A stretch of 64,000 bases of DNA, from assembly GCA_963706575.1 (NCBI GenBank), contig CAVPNL010000005.1, positions 320,001-384,000 on the forward strand, written 5' to 3'. The position numbers were made by a program. Shown here in pieces: positions 18,001-24,000 of this stretch. Position 1 is the stretch's first letter. Each line of letters starts with the position of its first letter. Source of the stretch: an uncultured delta proteobacterium. GTDB taxonomy: Bacteria; Desulfobacterota; Desulfobacteria; Desulfobacterales; JAHEIW01.

Positions 18001-21000
18001 GTTTCGAACTATCGCCCACGACACTCAGAAAGCTTTTGACTATGAGGCAGGCAAAAGTATTGAGCAAGAACCACCACTTTCGGTATTTCGTGAGGACGAA
18101 TTTGCCGAGGTTGTGGGCATAAATTAAGGGGTCATTGCGCGAAACGAACCAACGAAAAGGTGAGGGTTATATGACCAAAAAAATTGGTAAAGCCCTGGTT
18201 GTCGGAGCCGGCATCAGCGGTATCCGCTCGGCATTGGACCTGGCTGAATATGGTTACGGCGTTACCCTGATAGACCGGTCCTGCCATATCGGCGGCATTT
18301 TGAGTCAACTCGACTATCAGTTTCCCACAGACAGGTGCGGTATGTGCAAAATGCTTCCTTTAGTCGATCGAGATGCAAGCTCGCAATATTGCCTTCGCAA
18401 GGGGCTTTTTCATGAAAATATCGACATTCTGCTTGGCACCGAGCTGGTTTCAATCGACGGTGAGCCCGGCCGTTTCCAGGTCCAGCTGAAGGAGCATCCC
18501 AATTGGGTCAATTCCGATCTGTGCACCGGTTGTGGAGAGTGTACCCAGGTTTGCCCCGTGGAGGTCCCCGACGAATTCAATGCCGGGCTGGCAAAGCGCA
18601 AAGCAATATACCTTCCGGTCCCCCATGCCATTCCCAACACCTATATTATTGATGTTACTTCCTGTAACGACTGCAGGGCCTGTATCGAGGCTTGCCCAAC
18701 AGATGCCATTCACCTGCCCGAGCAGAAACGCGAGGGATTTCGCATTCTTGTGGTCGATGATGAACTCATCGTGCGCGATTCCCTCAAGGAATGGTTGCAA
18801 GAGGAAGGCTTTGCGGTGGACATGGCCGCCTCCGGTTCGGAAGCTTTAGATCAACTGACAAAACAGGAATATCAATTAATGCTGCTGGATATCAAGATGC
18901 CGGGCATGGACGGTGTCGAGGTCCTGCAAAAGGCCAGAGAAAGCTTCGCGGATATCAATGTGATTATGATGACCGCTTATGCAACCGTTGAAACCGCTGT
19001 TGAAGCCATGAAAATAGGGGCTCTGGATTATCTGATAAAACCATTTGATCCCGAAACCCTGATCCCCATGGTCCTGAGAATATACCAGGATATGACGGCG
19101 GCTGAAGGCCGACAGTTAGAAGTTGGGGCCATCGTACTTAGCGGTGGCACGGCCTTTTTCGACCCGGCCGGCGGGAAAAACACGTTTGGCTACGGGATGT
19201 ATCCGAACGTTGTCACCAGCCTTGAGTTTGAACGCATATTAAGTGGTACCGGCCCCTTTGAGGGACGGCCGCTGCGGCCGCTGGACGGAAAACCGGTTCA
19301 TAAAGTCGCCTGGATTCAATGCGTAGGCTCGCGCGATTTGCAAACGGATGCAGACTTTTGTTCAAATATCTGTTGCATGGTGGCCATTAAAGAAGCTGTC
19401 CTGGCCAAAGAAAAAATCGACGCGGATTTGGAAACAACCCTTTTTTATATGGATATGCGTACGTTTGGCAAAAGCTTTCAACGCTACCGGGAGCAGGCTG
19501 AAAGCCTTCATGGTGTGCGATTCGAAAGGGGTCGGGTCCACTCTGTCATACAGGATGAAGAAAGCGGAGATATGATTATCCGCAGTGTGGCCATTTCCGG
19601 AAAATCCACTGAATCACATTTTGACATGGTGGTGCTCACCGTCGGCCAGCGTCCGGCCGGTGGCACCTCTGAATTGGGCGAAATGCTGGGGCTGGAGCTG
19701 AATCCATGGGGCTTTGGAAACACTATCCCTTTTTCCCTGACGCGAACCAACCGCAGCGGGATTTTGCTGGGCGGTTCATTCGCGGGTCTCAAAGACATCG
19801 GTGACTCGGTGACCCAGGCCTCGGCGGCTGCCTTATCGGCATCCCAGGTGATTCATTCCAGTGGGGGTAGCCTATCGTTGGAGTCGCCGCCAGCCCTGCC
19901 CATAGCTGCTCTGGCGCGTGAAATCCCCAGAATTATGGCGGTCGTCTGTACCTGCGGGGGCAAACTTTCAGGATTTAATGACCCGGCAGAAATTGTTCAA
20001 CACCTTAAAACCAACCCTGTGGTGAAACAGGTTGAATTTCTGGAACACATCTGCACGGCCGACGGCTGGGCACAGCTGGCGGAAATGGTGGAAACGAACA
20101 AACCGAACCGGCTTTTGATTGGCACTTGCATGCCCTATGTCTATCAACGCAAACTCCAGGAGTTCGGCCGGCAGGTGGGTATAGATCCTGCCCTGATGGA
20201 AGTGGTTGATGTAAATACGGAATTAAAGGACAAACGGCTACTTTTGCGCAATATGCTTTCTGCTTTAGAGATGGGGATTTCCAAGCTCAAATGGGTGGAC
20301 CCATCTTCAACCGTTACAATTCCAGTCGCTCAACGTGCTTTGGTCATCGGTGGCGGTATTGCCGGCATGACGGCTGCTCTGGCAATTGCCGATCATGGAT
20401 TTCAGGTGGATCTTGTGGAACAGGCAGAACAGTTGGGAGGAAATCTGAACTGGCTGCAGCGCACCCTGGAGGGGTATTCGATAGAGACATTGCTGGGGGA
20501 CACCCGTCTCCTGGTTGAAAGGCATCCCAAGATTGGCGTTCATATCCAGTCCCAGGTTATTAGTTCTGTTGGCCAGGTAGGGAGTTTTTTGACTACCTTG
20601 GAAGGCCCGCAAAATTCGGTCCAAGCCTTGGAGCATGGTGTGACTATTTTAGCCACCGGCGGGGCGGAAGCCGTAACCGTTTCTTATGGATATGGTACAA
20701 ATCCGTCGATTATCACCCAGAAAGAATTAGAGCAAAAGCTATCTGCCGGCAAGATCGAACCCGAGCAGCTCGATTCGGTAGTGATGATTCAATGTGTGGA
20801 CTCGCGCGAGGAACCGCGCAATTATTGCAGTCGGGTGTGTTGTGCCAATTCGCTCAAGCAAGCCCTGGATCTCAAGGAAAAAAACCCTGAACTTTCAGTA
20901 TACATTCTTTATCGGGACATGATGGCCTACGGATTTGCCGAGGCTTATTACACCCGGGCCCGCAAAGCCGGTGTGATCTTCATCCAGTATCAGATTGATG

Positions 21001-24000
21001 AAAAACCCCGGGTCCAATGCGACCCGGCAAGCCTGGAGGTGGCCGTTTTTGAGCCCATCCTCGGTCGGCCGCTTCAAATTCAGACGGATCTTGTGGTTTT
21101 AGCCACCGGCGTTGTTCCAAATCTTCCTCAGGGCTTGGTGGAAATTTTTGGCGTAACACTTGATCAGGACGGCTTTTTCCAGGAGGCCGAATCCAAGTGG
21201 CGCCCGGTTGACGCCCTGAAAGAGGGCGTTTTTGCCTGCGGTCTGGCCCACTCCCCTCGAAACATACCGGAAGCAATTACCACTGCCGAGGCCGCCGCCG
21301 CAAGAGCCTTGAGAATACTTGCCCGTGAGCGCTTGCGGTCGGGAAAAGTAGTGGCCACTGTCCGTCACAGTCTGTGCAGTCTGTGTGAACAATGCATTGA
21401 TGCATGTCCATACGGTGCTCGCGTGCTGGATCTTGATCATGAAAAGGTACTGGTAAATCCGGCAATGTGCCAGGGGTGTGGGTCCTGTGCGGCAGTCTGC
21501 CCCAACAGCGCATCCGTTTTGGAGGGTTTTCAGGAACAGCAAATGTTTGAGGTAATTGATGCCGCCATTGGATGAACGGCTTAAAAAAAATTAAAAATGT
21601 TCAAGTTTATCAAAAATATCCGGCGTCGGTTGGCGACCAAGCTCATTTTAACAGTCGGCCTGACCCTGCTCATTACGATTTCTACCTGGGCTTACTTTAA
21701 TATCAATTATCAGGAAAAAAAGCTCATGGAGAATATTGTAGAAGGAACCGATCGGTTAACCAATACCATCAAACTCGGCACGCACTATGCCATGATGCTA
21801 AACTCGCGGGATGATATCAACCAGATCATTAATAATATCGGTAGGCAGAAAGAGATCGAAACCATTCGTATTTATAATAAGGGCGGGAAAATCAAATATT
21901 CCAACCAGCCGACGGAAATTGATACCGCCACCAATATAAAAGATGAAGCTTGTTATATCTGTCACCGGACGGAACCACCGCTGTTTGAACTCAGCCTGGA
22001 AGAAAGAACACGTATCTTTACCTCTGCCAAAGGCTATCGTTTACTTGGAATTATTAGCCCTATTTGTAATGAGCCTGGGTGTGCGACCGATGCCTGTCAT
22101 ATACATCCGAAAGGCAAAAAAATTCTTGGAGCGCTAGATGTGGTGGTCTCTCTGGAAGATGCGGATAAAGAAATCTTCATGACCCAAAAAGAAGCGTTTG
22201 GTTTGGCGGGTGCTATTTTCCTGGTGACATCCACCATTATTTTTCTTTTCCAGTTGCGGTTTGTCAATCAACCGATCCGGAAATTAATCGATGGAACCCG
22301 TACCATCGCAGAGGGGATTCATCCCAGCAGAGTCGACATTGACCAGGACGATGAGATGGGAAAACTTGCGGTTGCCATCAATCAGATGAGTAAAAAAATT
22401 GCCGAAAAACAGGCCGAACTGAATGAACAAAGAGACGAATACCAGACCCTCTTTGAAAGGGCACCCTGCCTGATTACGGTTCAGGATCGAAATTATAAGT
22501 TGCTAAGATATAATCGCGAATTCGCAAAACAGTTTGATCCTCAGCCCGGCGAACATTGCTATCATTCATATAAAGGGCAAGATCAGAAATGTGAAAATTG
22601 CCCGGTTGAACACACATTTGAAGATGGTCAAACCCATTATGGTGAGGAGACCGGGCTTAACAAAGACGGTACCCCGGTTCATTGGATTCTGCGAGCATCT
22701 CCGATTAAAAATGCGAAGGGTGAAATTGTTGCCGCCATCGAGATGAGCCTAGACATTACACAGCGCAAACAGCTTGAGGACAAACTGGAAAAGTCTGAGA
22801 AGAAATATCACGAAATTTTCAACAATATGCCAAACCCCGTTTTTGTATTGGACCTGGCGTCATTGAAGATACTCGACTGCAATGAGAGTGTAAAACCAGT
22901 ATACGGATTTGATAAAGATGAAGTCATTAACAGATCCTTTTTGGATCTCTTCATCGGAAAAGACCGTGATGAATATGCGTCAAAGCTAAAAAACGTTTCC
23001 GTGATCAACCAGGCAAAACAGCAGAACAAAAATGGCAAGACACTTTTTGTGACCATCAGAATTTCGCCTTCGGATTATTCGGGCAATAAGGTGCTTCTCG
23101 TGAGCACCAGCGATATCACCAAACGGCTCGAAACCGAGCAGCAGTTAATCCAGGCCAGCAAGATGGCAACCTTGGGAGAGATGGCCACCGGAGTTGCCCA
23201 CGAGCTCAATCAGCCGCTTTCGGTGATAAAAACCGCCAGCAGTTTTTCCATAAAAAAAATAAATAAAAACGAGCCGATCGAAGCGGAAATCTTGTTCAAA
23301 ATTCTGGCAAAGATAGACAGTAATGTGGATCGAGCGACAAAAATAATTAACCATATGCGGCAATTTGCGCGTAAATCTGAGATGGATTTGGAGAAAGTCC
23401 AGATCAACGACATTCTCGAAAGGGCTTTTGAGATTTTCAGCCAACAGCTTAAGTTAAGAGGGATTGAAGTCATCTGGTCCATCGACAAGAAATTACCGAA
23501 GATCAATGCGGATCCCGGTCGCATGGAGCAGGTGTTTATCAACCTTTTATTGAATGCCAGAGACGCAATTGAGGATAGATGGGGTAATCAAGAGCCGCAA
23601 TCAAGTGAAAAAAAGATTATTCTAAAAACAGTCTGTGATGGGCACAACGTCATCTGCGAGGTCTGTGATACCGGCATAGGGATTTCGGAATCTATTTCAG
23701 ATAAAATATTTGAACCTTTTTTCACGACGAAGGAAGTCGGCATGGGCACGGGGCTGGGGTTATCCATCAGTTATGGGATCGTGAAAGATTGCGGTGGTAG
23801 TATACAGGTCGTTCCCAACAAGCCAGAGGGCGCCTGTTTTGTTTTAAAATTTCCGCTGCAGGATATAAACGATGCAAAAGAAATTACTACTCGTCGATGA
23901 TGAAAAGGATGTCCGCGAGGTTCTGCTCTTACCCTTGTCGGATTTCGGATACCATATTTTCGAAGCCGAAAATGGAGAGGAAGCTTTGCGCCTTTTTAAG

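Follow-up and report, generated by a model that had tools for sequence, protein, structure and literature searches.

A receiver domain embedded in a tandem HdrA flavoprotein of the Desulfobacterales, a probable phosphorylation switch

An HdrA-type flavoprotein of an uncultured member of the Desulfobacterales, a large FAD and iron-sulfur subunit of a redox complex of sulfate reducers, carries a complete receiver domain inside its first HdrA unit, and phosphorylation probably acts on the enzyme as a direct switch; the intact receiver within the fold and its inheritance together with a particular sensor kinase make this probable. The best explanation as a whole, in which a kinase transfers phosphate to D240 and HdrA activity is changed, has a probability of about 0.55 in our estimate; the phosphotransfer, the identity of the acting kinase and the effect on electron flow are the parts of it that we infer. 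The window analyzed here is a stretch of 64,000 nucleotides, and all positions are counted from its first letter. Judged from the sequences of the gene and its neighbors, the locus encodes an HdrABC/HdrL-type cytoplasmic redox complex. Besides the HdrA-type flavoprotein its members are HdrL, which has an NAD(P)H site, the MvhD adaptor, an iron-sulfur protein resembling FdhB, and a disulfide-reductase module of HdrC and HdrB that is fused in the window to a QmoC-like membrane cytochrome (Table 1).

Results

Tandem HdrA and its embedded receiver

The reading frame is free of stop codons throughout, with a AGGTGAGG-like ribosome site 6 nt ahead of the ATG, and HMMER comparison with solved chains shows that the product spans two HdrA units. 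FAD folds are found by Pfam at residues 7-40 and 723-836, and Fer4 motifs at residues 113-186 and 1067-1113. Unit 1 (residues 1-575) includes an FAD fold, C56/C59, the ferredoxin insert (113-186), the receiver (REC) and K407, whereas unit 2 (residues 580-1134) consists of an N-terminal domain, an FAD fold and the C-terminal ferredoxin. Unit 1 has the features of a bifurcating unit, namely the CxxC pair, Lys407 and a ferredoxin insert with two clusters, the low-potential exit in solved relatives; C56, C59 and K407 are the same in all 125 relatives aligned (alignment A1). Like BamE, the protein is an HdrA dimer fused into one chain. Its scores with the NCBIfam HdrA models, 519-692 bits, lie below the cut-offs of 1100-1400. 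The structures closest to its AlphaFold2 model (mean pLDDT 90.1, pTM 0.88) are the HdrA chains 8rvy_A, 5odc_A and 7bkd_A. Core-only HdrA chains match the model with target-normalised TM-scores of 0.89-0.93, and full chains in differing states with 0.52-0.73; this spread, together with the states in the accessible part of a preprint on BCRII (see Discussion), indicates that the ferredoxin arm moves in relatives.

The preliminary description had put the receiver at residues 192-300, after the ferredoxin insert, and there Response_reg indeed aligns over model positions 1-109 of 111 with 111.8 bits (109.5 earlier; cut-off 30.2), the PDB matches being Spo0F, NtrC1, FixJ and CheY. Its placement between Fer4 and the second FAD fold has to be corrected, as the domain maps between positions 312 and 318 of 5odc_A, within the first HdrA unit and just after the two Fer4 motifs. 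D240 (nt 18888-18890) is predicted to accept the phosphate; like D196, D197, T268, Y287 and K290, it is unchanged in 32 of 32 orthologs, and almost no position varies in helix alpha1 or between residues 268 and 292. The alpha4-beta5-alpha5 surface is the usual output face of receivers, and in the embedded domain it is near-invariant.

REC-bearing HdrA sequences form a single clade (support 0.96), within which two REC-less members are nested, P0124 with remnants of the domain and P0131 with a clean loss. A single insertion event placed the complete, NtrC-like receiver at the C-terminal hinge of the unit-1 ferredoxin domain, and losses in some lineages came later. In another member, P0125, it is degenerate (Thr to Gly, Lys to His). 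Since two lineages have lost the domain and one has degraded it, the receiver looks regulatory rather than catalytic; P0125 also indicates that it can persist without canonical phospho-chemistry. A sister receiver (49% identity over 184 aa), sharing its alpha1 and alpha4-beta5 sequence, is found in a Usp-REC-Usp protein that adjoins a REC-PAS-type kinase in locus L019.

Gene cluster

Table 1. Features of the HdrA-REC locus in the window
Feature	Coordinates	Strand	Evidence
REC-PAS-HisKA-HATPase hybrid kinase, two overlapping frames (6541-7446, 7229-8107)	6541-8107	+	Pfam on both pieces
PAS-sigma54 activator (AAA+ and HTH; no receiver)	8196-9935	+	Sigma54_activat 240 bits, PAS, HTH_8 (Pfam)
Candidate sigma54 (-24/-12) promoter TGGCAT-N5-ATGC	10173-10187	+	Pattern match, 2 mismatches; 26 nt before ATG 10213
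Stand-alone receiver protein, 162 aa	10213-10701	+	Response_reg 62.8 bits (Pfam)
Membrane QmoC-like/HdrC-like/HdrB-like (CCG) fusion, pieces 10717-12567 and 12552-13007	10717-13007	+	NCBIfam, Pfam CCG on both pieces
HdrL, HdrA fused to GltD/NfnB-like NAD(P)H-binding module, 1136 aa	12970-16380	+	Pfam Pyr_redox_2, Fer4_20, Fer4
MvhD-like [2Fe-2S] adaptor	16287-16817	+	FlpD 179.9 bits (Pfam); 20/20 related loci
FrhB/FdhB-like iron-sulfur protein, 380 aa	16985-18127	+	FrhB_FdhB_C 37.4 bits, Fer4 (Pfam); 19/20 related loci
Tandem HdrA flavoprotein with embedded receiver (HdrA-REC), 1134 aa	18171-21575	+	Pfam, solved-chain HMMER, AlphaFold2
Receiver (CheY-like) domain, residues 192-300	18744-19070	+	Pfam Response_reg; PDB matches
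HAMP-PAS-PAS-HisKA-HATPase sensor kinase	21597-23900	+	Pfam; starts 22 nt past HdrA stop codon
REC-HATPase hybrid kinase	23872-24993	+	Response_reg 103.1 bits, HATPase_c 84.5 bits (Pfam)
FrhB/FpoF-like flavo-iron-sulfur protein, final gene of the run	24993-26006	+	FrhB_FdhB_C 127.6, FrhB_FdhB_N 65.7 bits (Pfam)

The HdrA-, MvhD- and FrhB/FdhB-like neighbors and the HAMP-PAS kinase noted earlier are all present, but the gene then called a second regulator encodes a REC-HATPase hybrid kinase, which overlaps the end of the HAMP-PAS kinase gene by 29 nt and has homologs (49-66% identity) in 12 of 20 related loci. Further two-component genes lie upstream (6541-10701). The gene order kept among relatives is receiver-only protein, HdrL, MvhD, FdhB-like protein, HdrA-REC, HdrC, HdrB, HAMP-PAS kinase and REC-kinase; in the window a membrane QmoC-like fusion, encoded upstream, takes the place of the HdrC/HdrB pair. 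This fusion matches NCBIfam qmoC with 221 bits (cut-off 300) over residues 6-351 as well as HdrC models, and occurs among the 20 loci in L023 and L029 only; it is split by an apparent frameshift in the window, the L023 ortholog being a single 768-aa ORF. HdrL, present in 18 of the 20 loci, matches NCBIfam PRK12771 (537 bits, cut-off 516) and HdrA models. The stand-alone receiver retains the acidic pair, acceptor Asp, Ser/Thr and Lys, and in 11/20 loci the gene immediately ahead of HdrL is a homolog of it (at least 50% coverage). Orthologs of the PAS-sigma54 activator occur in several related loci, whereas no homolog of the FrhB/FpoF-like protein was found in the 20 at a coverage of at least 50%. 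The sigma54-promoter pattern has 76 matches in the window against 69 expected, so it is position alone that makes the candidate promoter suggestive. TGTTGCA/TGCAACA repeats are located at approximately 9950-10085.

Distribution and co-occurring kinases

A query spanning the junction (residues 101-420) finds it in 52 of 120 other genomes of the order, representing 46 of 88 other families, with 54-79% identity and in open frames of about 1150 aa; in three further genomes the gene is truncated at a contig end. The earlier figure of about half of the Desulfobacterales families is upheld. In a phylum sample 8 of 300 other genomes match, 6 of them among the 291 from other orders. To speak of a core electron-transfer enzyme was an overstatement, as both same-genus genomes are without the HdrA-REC gene and the genome itself has three receiver-less paralogs, which are approximately 39% identical and all contain an in-frame TGA.

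The link to kinases drawn in the preliminary description holds in that kinase genes are found near HdrA-REC in most of the 20 related loci, but the better candidate partner is another gene than the adjacent one. The HAMP-PAS kinase, with an ortholog in 13/20 loci (at least 50% coverage), belongs to a family found in 49 of 52 REC-positive genomes and also in 26 of 68 that have no receiver-bearing HdrA, and is therefore not the best candidate partner. The family of the REC-PAS hybrid kinase, in contrast, is present in 52/52 REC-positive genomes versus 9/68 others, figures that overstate independence because the genomes counted are related. Here we describe, as a new observation, that this kinase tracks the HdrA receiver genome by genome: among 13 sampled families that mix REC-positive and REC-negative genomes, there are seven (f1, f21, f26, f29, f31, f40 and f49) in which all REC-negative genomes are also devoid of the kinase. 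In addition, the two genes lie on one contig at most 20 kb apart in 29 genomes. No kinase or receiver gene was found within 20 kb of the REC-less operons of the same type (L037, L040); some receiver-less paralogs (L033-L036) do have two-component genes 2-5 kb away, so adjacency alone is weak evidence. Overall, the anatomy, the conservation and the signaling-gene link hold, the last now more firmly than before, and the REC-PAS kinase appears to be the best candidate partner of the HdrA receiver.

In the window the REC-PAS kinase is split by an apparent frameshift near 7290, whereas its orthologs have frames of about 520-560 aa; the piece 6541-7446 shares 53% identity over 249 aa with the N-terminal part of an intact ortholog of 515 aa (L018:1378-2925). 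Either this reflects an error in the assembly, or the organism has an impaired pathway.

Discussion

Methanogen HdrA (PDB 5ODC, 8RVY/8RVU, 7BKB/7BKD) is the best match both in sequence (E 2e-124) and in structure (Foldseek E 2.6e-47, identity 24-30%), and shares the FAD fold, cluster cysteines, inserted ferredoxin and N- and C-terminal domains, but lacks a receiver and has only one HdrA unit in each chain. A further close analog is BamE, the subunit of the class II benzoyl-CoA reductase of Geobacter metallireducens in which an HdrA dimer is fused (bioRxiv 10.64898/2026.04.10.717634). As far as the accessible part of that preprint goes, both proteins have two thioredoxin-reductase-like units per chain and, in the N-terminal unit, an inserted ferredoxin domain as low-potential exit, and both systems use an MvhD-type adaptor and an HdrBC/HdrD-like high-potential partner. 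The numbering and the invariance in alignment A1 suggest that Cys59/Cys62 and Lys280 of BamE, the latter the flavin lysine, correspond to C56/C59 and to K407 (280 plus an insertion of about 125 residues). The same part reports two states of BCRII that shift the distance to the inserted-ferredoxin clusters from 23 to 12 A; it describes no receiver in BamE, and names as partners BamBC (tungsten enzyme) and BamGHI, none of which was seen among the Pfam results for the HdrA-REC locus.

The gene set and order HdrL, MvhD, FdhB-like, HdrA, HdrC and HdrB are shared with the HdrABC/HdrL locus of Syntrophobacter fumaroxidans (Sfum_0819-0824), whose proteins, according to the accessible portion of PMC5947623, were detected solely with sulfate present and for which DsrC reduction was proposed. 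The hdrL/hdrA4 locus VIII of Desulfobacterium autotrophicum HRM2 (PMC2702500) has the same set and order; the window departs from both in its QmoC-like fusion. The main texts of these two papers do not mention a receiver in HdrA. The color key of Fig. S3a/b of the 2009 HRM2 paper lists a "response regulator receiver domaine", for a protein that the key alone does not identify, and it is the only possible trace of such a receiver found in the literature searched.

CheB, the PleD-type regulators and other response regulators whose output domain is an enzyme likewise have a receiver attached to an enzyme whose activity is controlled by a kinase. In HdrA-REC, however, the receiver lies within the catalytic fold of a multi-cluster flavoprotein and not N-terminally. 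Galperin et al. (2018), who reviewed the enzyme-linked class, note receivers on "standard metabolic enzymes" and, from archaeal metagenomes, an output of the thioredoxin-reductase type (PMC5847659, in the part available).

At least four receivers and three kinases at the locus make the wiring ambiguous, and information might run in the opposite direction, from enzyme to signaling. The embedded receiver would then be a node or sink of a multi-step phosphorelay, in which the redox or conformational state of HdrA sets the acceptance or holding of phosphate, tuning the hybrid kinases and finally operon expression. The locus has an unusual wealth of relay parts, with two REC-kinase hybrids, the HAMP-PAS kinase, a PAS-sigma54 activator without receiver and a receiver-only protein recurrent upstream of HdrL. 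Yet none of the data requires reverse flow, the near-invariant surface is the one generally used for output, and enzyme-fused receivers as a class are described as controlling the enzyme (in the available part of PMC5847659); we regard this possibility as unlikely. Equally doubtful is that phosphorylation governs assembly rather than internal electron flow, through receiver-receiver dimerization or docking of ferredoxin, FdhB-like protein, HdrL or MvhD that switches oligomeric or partner-bound states. NtrC-type receivers act via alpha4-beta5-alpha5 dimers, and they are the nearest sequence relatives of the embedded domain (PDB NtrC1; AtoC-like models). Moreover, the Hdr and BCRII complexes whose structures are solved consist of two protomers as dimers, according to the accessible part of the preprint (bioRxiv 10.64898/2026.04.10.717634), but the fused double HdrA already provides an HdrA-HdrA contact in one chain.

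Even less probable is a phosphorylation-independent structural module, a functional pseudo-receiver that stabilizes or spaces the ferredoxin arm. The P0125 lineage and the good model confidence over the receiver (pLDDT 72-91 per ten-residue block) would suit it; the six invariant signature residues, the tight co-occurrence with a kinase family and the deletion of the domain in two lineages that kept the remaining enzyme argue against it. An artefact of assembly or gene calling, suggested by the two apparent frameshifts in other genes of the locus, is refuted by the continuous frame and the junction-spanning open frames in 52 other genomes, by the presence of PF00072 in all 120 of the metagenome protein clusters listed (most about 1140 aa), and by RNA-library contigs that span both junctions (X18 records 21 and 22, X16 record 6); these contigs also speak for expression of the fusion.

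Under direct switching by phosphorylation, the co-inherited kinase, for which we favor the REC-PAS hybrid kinase, would phosphorylate D240, and the HAMP-PAS membrane kinase may feed the hybrid kinase. Phosphorylation would cause a change at the conserved alpha4-beta5-alpha5 face and alter enzyme activity, most likely by repositioning or locking the mobile ferredoxin arm. If so, post-translational control would be layered over presumed sigma54-dependent transcription of the operon, and the output of a receiver would be the routing of electrons in a bifurcation-type complex.

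Domain architecture of HdrA-REC

The HdrA-like protein with an embedded receiver (HdrA-REC) is encoded by an uninterrupted frame of 1134 codons on the plus strand (positions 18171-21575), with a Shine-Dalgarno-like AGGTGAGG located 6 nt 5' of its ATG. This frame and a Pfam score of 111.8 bits bear out the receiver domain in an HdrA-like ORF reported in the preliminary description. The thioredoxin-reductase-like FAD fold that characterizes HdrA-type flavoproteins was recovered by Pfam, HMMER, and Foldseek. The protein aligns in four pieces to HdrA of PDB 5ODC and is therefore a tandem fusion of two HdrA units (unit 1, residues 1-575; unit 2, residues 580-1134). 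The Fer4 region of unit 1 aligns to 5odc_A 245-312, so the inserted two-cluster ferredoxin domain is present. The receiver was initially placed between Fer4 and the second FAD fold; in fact its residues 191-303 fall exactly between 5odc_A 312 and 318, inside unit 1 and directly after the inserted ferredoxin domain.

Features of the HdrA-REC protein and its gene cluster, with occurrence in the twenty related loci, in the 52 genomes with the HdrA-REC gene (REC-positive), and in the remaining 68 genomes of the order sample
Feature	Position	Correspondence	Basis	Related loci	REC-positive genomes	Other genomes
Response_reg (PF00072)	residues 192-300	model 1-109 of 111	Pfam, 111.8 bits, cut-off 30.2
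Fer4 / 4Fe-4S motifs	residues 113-132 and 165-186 (range 113-186); 1067-1113		Pfam
FAD folds (Pyr_redox_2, NAD_binding_8, FAD_oxidored)	residues 7-40 and 723-836		Pfam
FAD domain start and ferredoxin motifs	residues 15-184	5odc_A 153-312	HMMER vs solved chains
Rest of FAD domain	residues 315-512	5odc_A 318-514	HMMER vs solved chains
N-terminal domain and second FAD domain start	residues 584-758	5odc_A 2-181	HMMER vs solved chains
Second FAD domain end and C-terminal ferredoxin	residues 962-1130	5odc_A 476-647	HMMER vs solved chains
REC-PAS kinase	6541-8107 (+)			11/20 (inside fetched 20 kb)	52/52	9/68
Receiver-only protein				11/20
HdrL (HdrA/GltD fusion)	12970-16380		Pfam	18/20
MvhD	16287-16817		Pfam	20/20
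FrhB/FdhB-like proteins	16985-18127 and 24993-26006		Pfam	19/20 (FdhB-like)
HAMP-PAS-PAS kinase (HAMP-PAS kinase)	21597-23900		Pfam	13/20	49/52	26/68
Receiver-HATPase hybrid (REC-kinase)	23872-24993		Pfam	12/20

An AlphaFold2 model built with 125 relatives has a mean pLDDT of 90.1 and a pTM of 0.88, with 72-91 in the blocks of the receiver, and its top Foldseek matches are the HdrA chains 8rvy_A, 5odc_A, 8rvu_A, and 7bkd_A (E 1e-47 to 1e-43). Judged by its sequence, HdrA-REC is a relative of the CoB-CoM heterodisulfide reductase subunit and not that subunit itself, scoring 692, 542, and 519 bits with the NCBIfam methanogen HdrA models against cut-offs of 1100, 1400, and 1300. All 125 aligned relatives retain C56, C59, K407, C384, C397, C401, and C402; the alignment to HdrA and the description of BamE would place the C56/C59 pair, K407, and the cluster cysteines at the flavin. 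Three tandem HdrA paralogs without a receiver (about 39% identity) are encoded in the same genome on contigs C4 and C15; the N-terminal part of each contains a TGA in frame, and one in-frame TGA was also observed within residues 103-416 of the ortholog in genome G065 (loci L008/L013). These codons may specify selenocysteine.

BamE of class II benzoyl-CoA reductase is described, in the available text of a recent preprint (bioRxiv 10.64898/2026.04.10.717634), as "a fused HdrA dimer", whose N-terminal unit holds the bifurcating FAD, Lys280 at N5, and a Cys59-Cys62 pair, and whose inserted ferredoxin domain with clusters E5 and E6 is the low-potential exit; between two conformational states of the enzyme the E3-E5 distance changes from 23 to 12 A. 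Like BamE, HdrA-REC carries two HdrA units in one chain (15-512 and 584-1130 each align to HdrA), and it has the ferredoxin insert in the first unit only, since Pfam detects no Fer4 motifs between residues 187 and 1060. Unlike in the BamE system, the BamB/C (tungsten AOR type) and BamGHI (HydABC type) families are absent from the Pfam results for the window genes at 7229-34233. K407 would be the counterpart of BamE Lys280, 407 being 280 plus roughly the length of the insertion, with BamE itself outside the alignment. The invariance of C56, C59, and K407 and the likeness to BamE therefore point to the receiver-bearing unit 1 as the unit with bifurcation marks.

Competence, ancestry, and distribution of the receiver

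Residues D196, D197, D240, T268, Y287, and K290, which we take to correspond to D12, D13, D57, T87, Y106, and K109 of CheY, are invariant in all 32 orthologs from related genomes. Helix alpha1 (R202, S204, L209, E212) and the stretch 268-292 (alpha4-beta5) are nearly invariant in the orthologs, and alpha2 and alpha3 vary. The closest curated models and solved structures are receivers of the NtrC/AtoC and Spo0F/FixJ types.

Among the best 150 representatives of an exhaustive HMMER search are numerous receiver-less tandem HdrA proteins, about 1000 aa long, whose alignment covers the regions flanking the receiver on either side. We scored receiver presence with an HMM built from the orthologs and constructed a tree of 101 full-length sequences from which the receiver columns had been removed. 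All 11 sequences that bear the receiver group in a single 13-leaf clade (support 0.96), and the two other members of this clade have either short remnants of the domain (P0124) or a clean deletion (P0131). In sequence P0125 the receiver is kept but degenerate, with Thr changed to Gly and Lys to His. The pattern fits a receiver that was inserted once and was later lost or degraded on occasion.

Residues 101-420, used as the query of a word-indexed search against 5.8 billion proteins, matched at least 120 clusters at 70-96% identity; all 120 clusters among the matches listed carry PF00072, most are about 1140 aa long, and their source names are "heterodisulfide reductase subunit A" or "response regulator". 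Within the order, a near full-length match spanning the junctions (54-79% identity, in frames of about 1150 aa) was found in 52 of 120 other genomes, which represent 46 of 88 other families. Three further genomes (G004, G011, and G022) carry a copy truncated by the end of its contig, and the same junction-spanning search found it in neither of the two genomes of the same genus. A phylum sample of 300 other genomes yielded eight matches: two belong to the same order, and six come from the 291 genomes outside it; the counts first given for the order (36 of 80) and the phylum sample (2 of 120) are of similar size.

Gene order and operon variants

Pfam analysis of the window genes agrees with the neighborhood originally listed, namely HdrA-, MvhD-, and FrhB/FdhB-like genes, a HAMP-PAS kinase, and a second regulator. 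Comparison of twenty 20-kb contexts of related loci, every one of which contains HdrA itself, gave the conserved order (REC-PAS kinase, PAS-sigma54 activator) - receiver-only - HdrL - MvhD - FdhB-like - HdrA-REC - HdrC-like - HdrB-like - HAMP-PAS kinase - REC-kinase. An ORF pair of HdrC/HdrB size follows HdrA on the 3' side in 16 of 18 loci examined, and Pfam confirmed the assignment in all three cases tested. This operon matches in order the HdrABC/HdrL cluster of Syntrophobacter fumaroxidans (Sfum_0819-0824) and, according to the accessible portion of the genome report, locus VIII of Desulfobacterium autotrophicum (PMC2702500). The available text on S. fumaroxidans describes its HdrABC/HdrL complex as detected by proteomics only with sulfate present and proposes DsrC reduction (PMC5947623).

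In the window HdrL, MvhD, FdhB-like, and HdrA follow one another as in the HdrABC/HdrL type; HdrC/HdrB, however, are replaced by an upstream membrane fusion protein, so the window operon agrees with this type only in part. The window and two of the related loci (L023 and L029) have no soluble HdrC/HdrB pair, and their upstream membrane protein consists of QmoC-like cytochrome b, HdrC-like, and CCG domains; this fusion suggests that the operon variant may be linked to the quinone pool. The window copy of the membrane gene (QmoC-like/HdrC/HdrB-like, 10717-13007) is split near 12550, and its ortholog in L023 is one ORF of 768 aa.

Contigs from four metatranscriptome libraries of four studies map to 12900-25100 at 88% likeness or more, and most of them are 90-95% alike to the window and therefore derive from relatives. 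One contig spans the ferredoxin-receiver junction (X18 record 21, 18558-18794) and two span the receiver-flavodomain junction (X16 record 6, 18986-19355; X18 record 22, 18879-19126). These contigs suggest transcription across the receiver junctions, DNA carry-over in RNA libraries being possible. The kinase genes have lower contig depth than the hdr genes, a difference that was set aside since depths of this kind do not serve to rank genes. The region before the receiver-only gene contains a candidate sigma54 promoter at 10173-10187 as well as TGTTGCA/TGCAACA repeats; the sigma54 pattern is not enriched in the window (76 matches vs 69 expected), so that position alone provides a hint. A transcriptional layer acting via the PAS-sigma54 activator is faintly suggested.

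Several other genes of the window deserve mention. A second receiver fusion (32167-34233, minus strand, 688 aa) combines an N-terminal receiver with a Na_sulph_symp/CitMHS-type transporter and has a dCache histidine kinase (34175-35977) on one side and a receiver-only protein (31608-32159) on the other, the region 31608-35977 being on the minus strand. In the segment 29865-31496, a 319-aa member of the AIR-synthase family (SelD/HypE/ThiL-like) precedes a TusA-DsrE fusion of 198 aa. Ech/Coo-like membrane [NiFe] hydrogenase genes occupy 47715-52447, and a set of four genes resembling those of a soluble [NiFe] hydrogenase, one of them for an NAD-binding subunit (55841-60388, minus strand), is followed by a FocA-type formate channel (60635-61537).

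A candidate kinase for the receiver

Kinase adjacency was checked at first in the window alone, and a HAMP-PAS ortholog is also present in 13 of the related loci; as a discriminator, adjacency was rejected, as receiver-less paralog loci of another type (L033-L036) also have two-component genes, kinases included, 2-5 kb away. Genome-wide co-occurrence was therefore used in place of adjacency. Two receiver-less operons of the same type as that of HdrA-REC (L037 and L040, with the order HdrC-HdrB-HdrL-MvhD-FdhB-like-HdrAA) have no kinase or receiver gene within 20 kb. The L040 operon adjoins a Wadjet JetD-like protein (DUF3322 and JetD_C; L040:17232-18443, minus strand) and an SNF2 helicase.

Of a REC-PAS-HisKA-HATPase kinase, the window ORF 7229-8107 covers the C-terminal half alone, and the part N-terminal to it is read in another frame (6541-7446); the gene is split near 7290 into overlapping frames, and its orthologs are single ORFs for about 515-560 aa. 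The apparent frameshifts in this gene and in the membrane HdrBC-like gene reflect either assembly errors or decay of the system in this organism. Orthologs of the REC-PAS kinase (54-81% identity, E at most 2.5e-88) are separated by a clean gap from paralogs (at most 48% identity, E at least 1.5e-73).

By co-occurrence, the REC-PAS kinase family accompanies HdrA-REC in all 52 REC-positive genomes, and the HAMP-PAS kinase tracks it more loosely. Among the nine other genomes with the REC-PAS kinase, three are the genomes in which a contig end truncates HdrA, two are assemblies of only 75% and 87% completeness from genera in which another member is REC-positive, and at least two carry a Usp-REC-type protein instead of HdrA-REC. 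Thirteen sampled families mix REC-positive and REC-negative genomes, and in seven of these (f1, f21, f26, f29, f31, f40, and f49) every REC-negative genome lacks the REC-PAS kinase. The kinase and HdrA-REC are on the same contig within 20 kb in 29 genomes. A second copy of the HAMP-PAS kinase, 63% identical to the first, is located in the same genome 14 kb before the window (G000:C5:303932-306187).

At locus L019 the REC-PAS kinase stands beside a Usp-REC-Usp protein of 437 aa (L019:14180-15493), whose receiver is the nearest relative of that in HdrA-REC (49% identity over 184 aa, with the same alpha1 and alpha4-beta5 sequences). From this similarity, the embedded receiver and the Usp-REC-Usp regulator probably answer to the same kinase. 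By its co-occurrence, the HdrA receiver is inherited together with a specific kinase of the REC-PAS family, and we propose phosphotransfer between the two. This co-occurrence is the new contribution of the present analysis. Similar Usp-REC/REC-PAS kinase pairs were observed in two other genomes (G040:C17 and G036:C4).

Discussion

The HdrA-REC architecture is real and widespread, and its function is undescribed in the print searched. The gene is common: it occurs in 52 of the 120 genomes sampled for the order, and over 100 metagenome protein clusters represent it. Neither full-text literature searches nor the accessible portions of PMC2702500, PMC5109826, PMC6491731, and PMC5947623 yielded a description of a receiver inside HdrA, subscription reviews of sulfate-reducer energy metabolism being outside this scope. 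The sole trace found in print is an entry in a color key, "response regulator receiver domaine" (Strittmatter et al. 2009, PMC2702500, Fig. S3a/b); the available main text of that paper does not contain the word "receiver". Receivers on metabolic enzymes are a known class according to the accessible part of Galperin et al. 2018 (PMC5847659), which includes a thioredoxin-reductase-type output in archaeal metagenomes. HdrA-REC belongs to this class of response regulators with enzymatic output, and it is unusual there in having the receiver inserted within a bifurcation-type flavoprotein fold, at the mobile low-potential arm. Protein-level signaling control of electron-bifurcating Hdr-type complexes was described nowhere in the literature searched.

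In this bifurcating-type unit, the low-potential ferredoxin arm has at its C-terminal hinge a receiver that is phosphorylation-competent by its conserved residues. Full HdrA chains in different states fit the model at target-normalised TM-scores (TMt) of 0.52-0.73, and core-only chains at 0.89-0.93; this spread and the available text on benzoyl-CoA reductase (bioRxiv 10.64898/2026.04.10.717634) indicate that the ferredoxin-arm part of HdrA moves in solved relatives. Phosphorylation of D240 would alter the alpha4-beta5-alpha5 face of the receiver, with that face altered the ferredoxin arm could be repositioned or its freedom changed, or a partner could dock differently, and electron flow through the complex might thereby be switched post-translationally. 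Our tentative reading, to which we assign a probability of roughly 0.35, is that a two-component switch physically gates the ferredoxin branch of a bifurcating Hdr complex: phosphorylated D240 would move or lock the arm, and a sensor kinase would set the coupling or direction of bifurcation in sulfate-reducer energy metabolism in seconds, without new protein synthesis.

This reading has to be weighed against three others. The receiver could be purely structural; its loss in some lineages, where the enzyme has dispensed with the domain, argues for a regulatory role. In the other two, phosphorylation of the receiver might control assembly, or the embedded receiver might act as a relay or a sink. 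Gating of the ferredoxin branch is directly testable, as the receiver is located at the hinge of a domain that is mobile in solved relatives and a candidate kinase can be identified.

How anaerobes apportion their limited energy among ferredoxin, NAD(P)H, and acceptors of the sulfur or quinone kind is set by electron-bifurcating Hdr-type complexes. The S. fumaroxidans complex was detected only under sulfate-reducing conditions, and the proposed gating, if true, would therefore bear on the control of sulfate reduction in marine and wetland environments.
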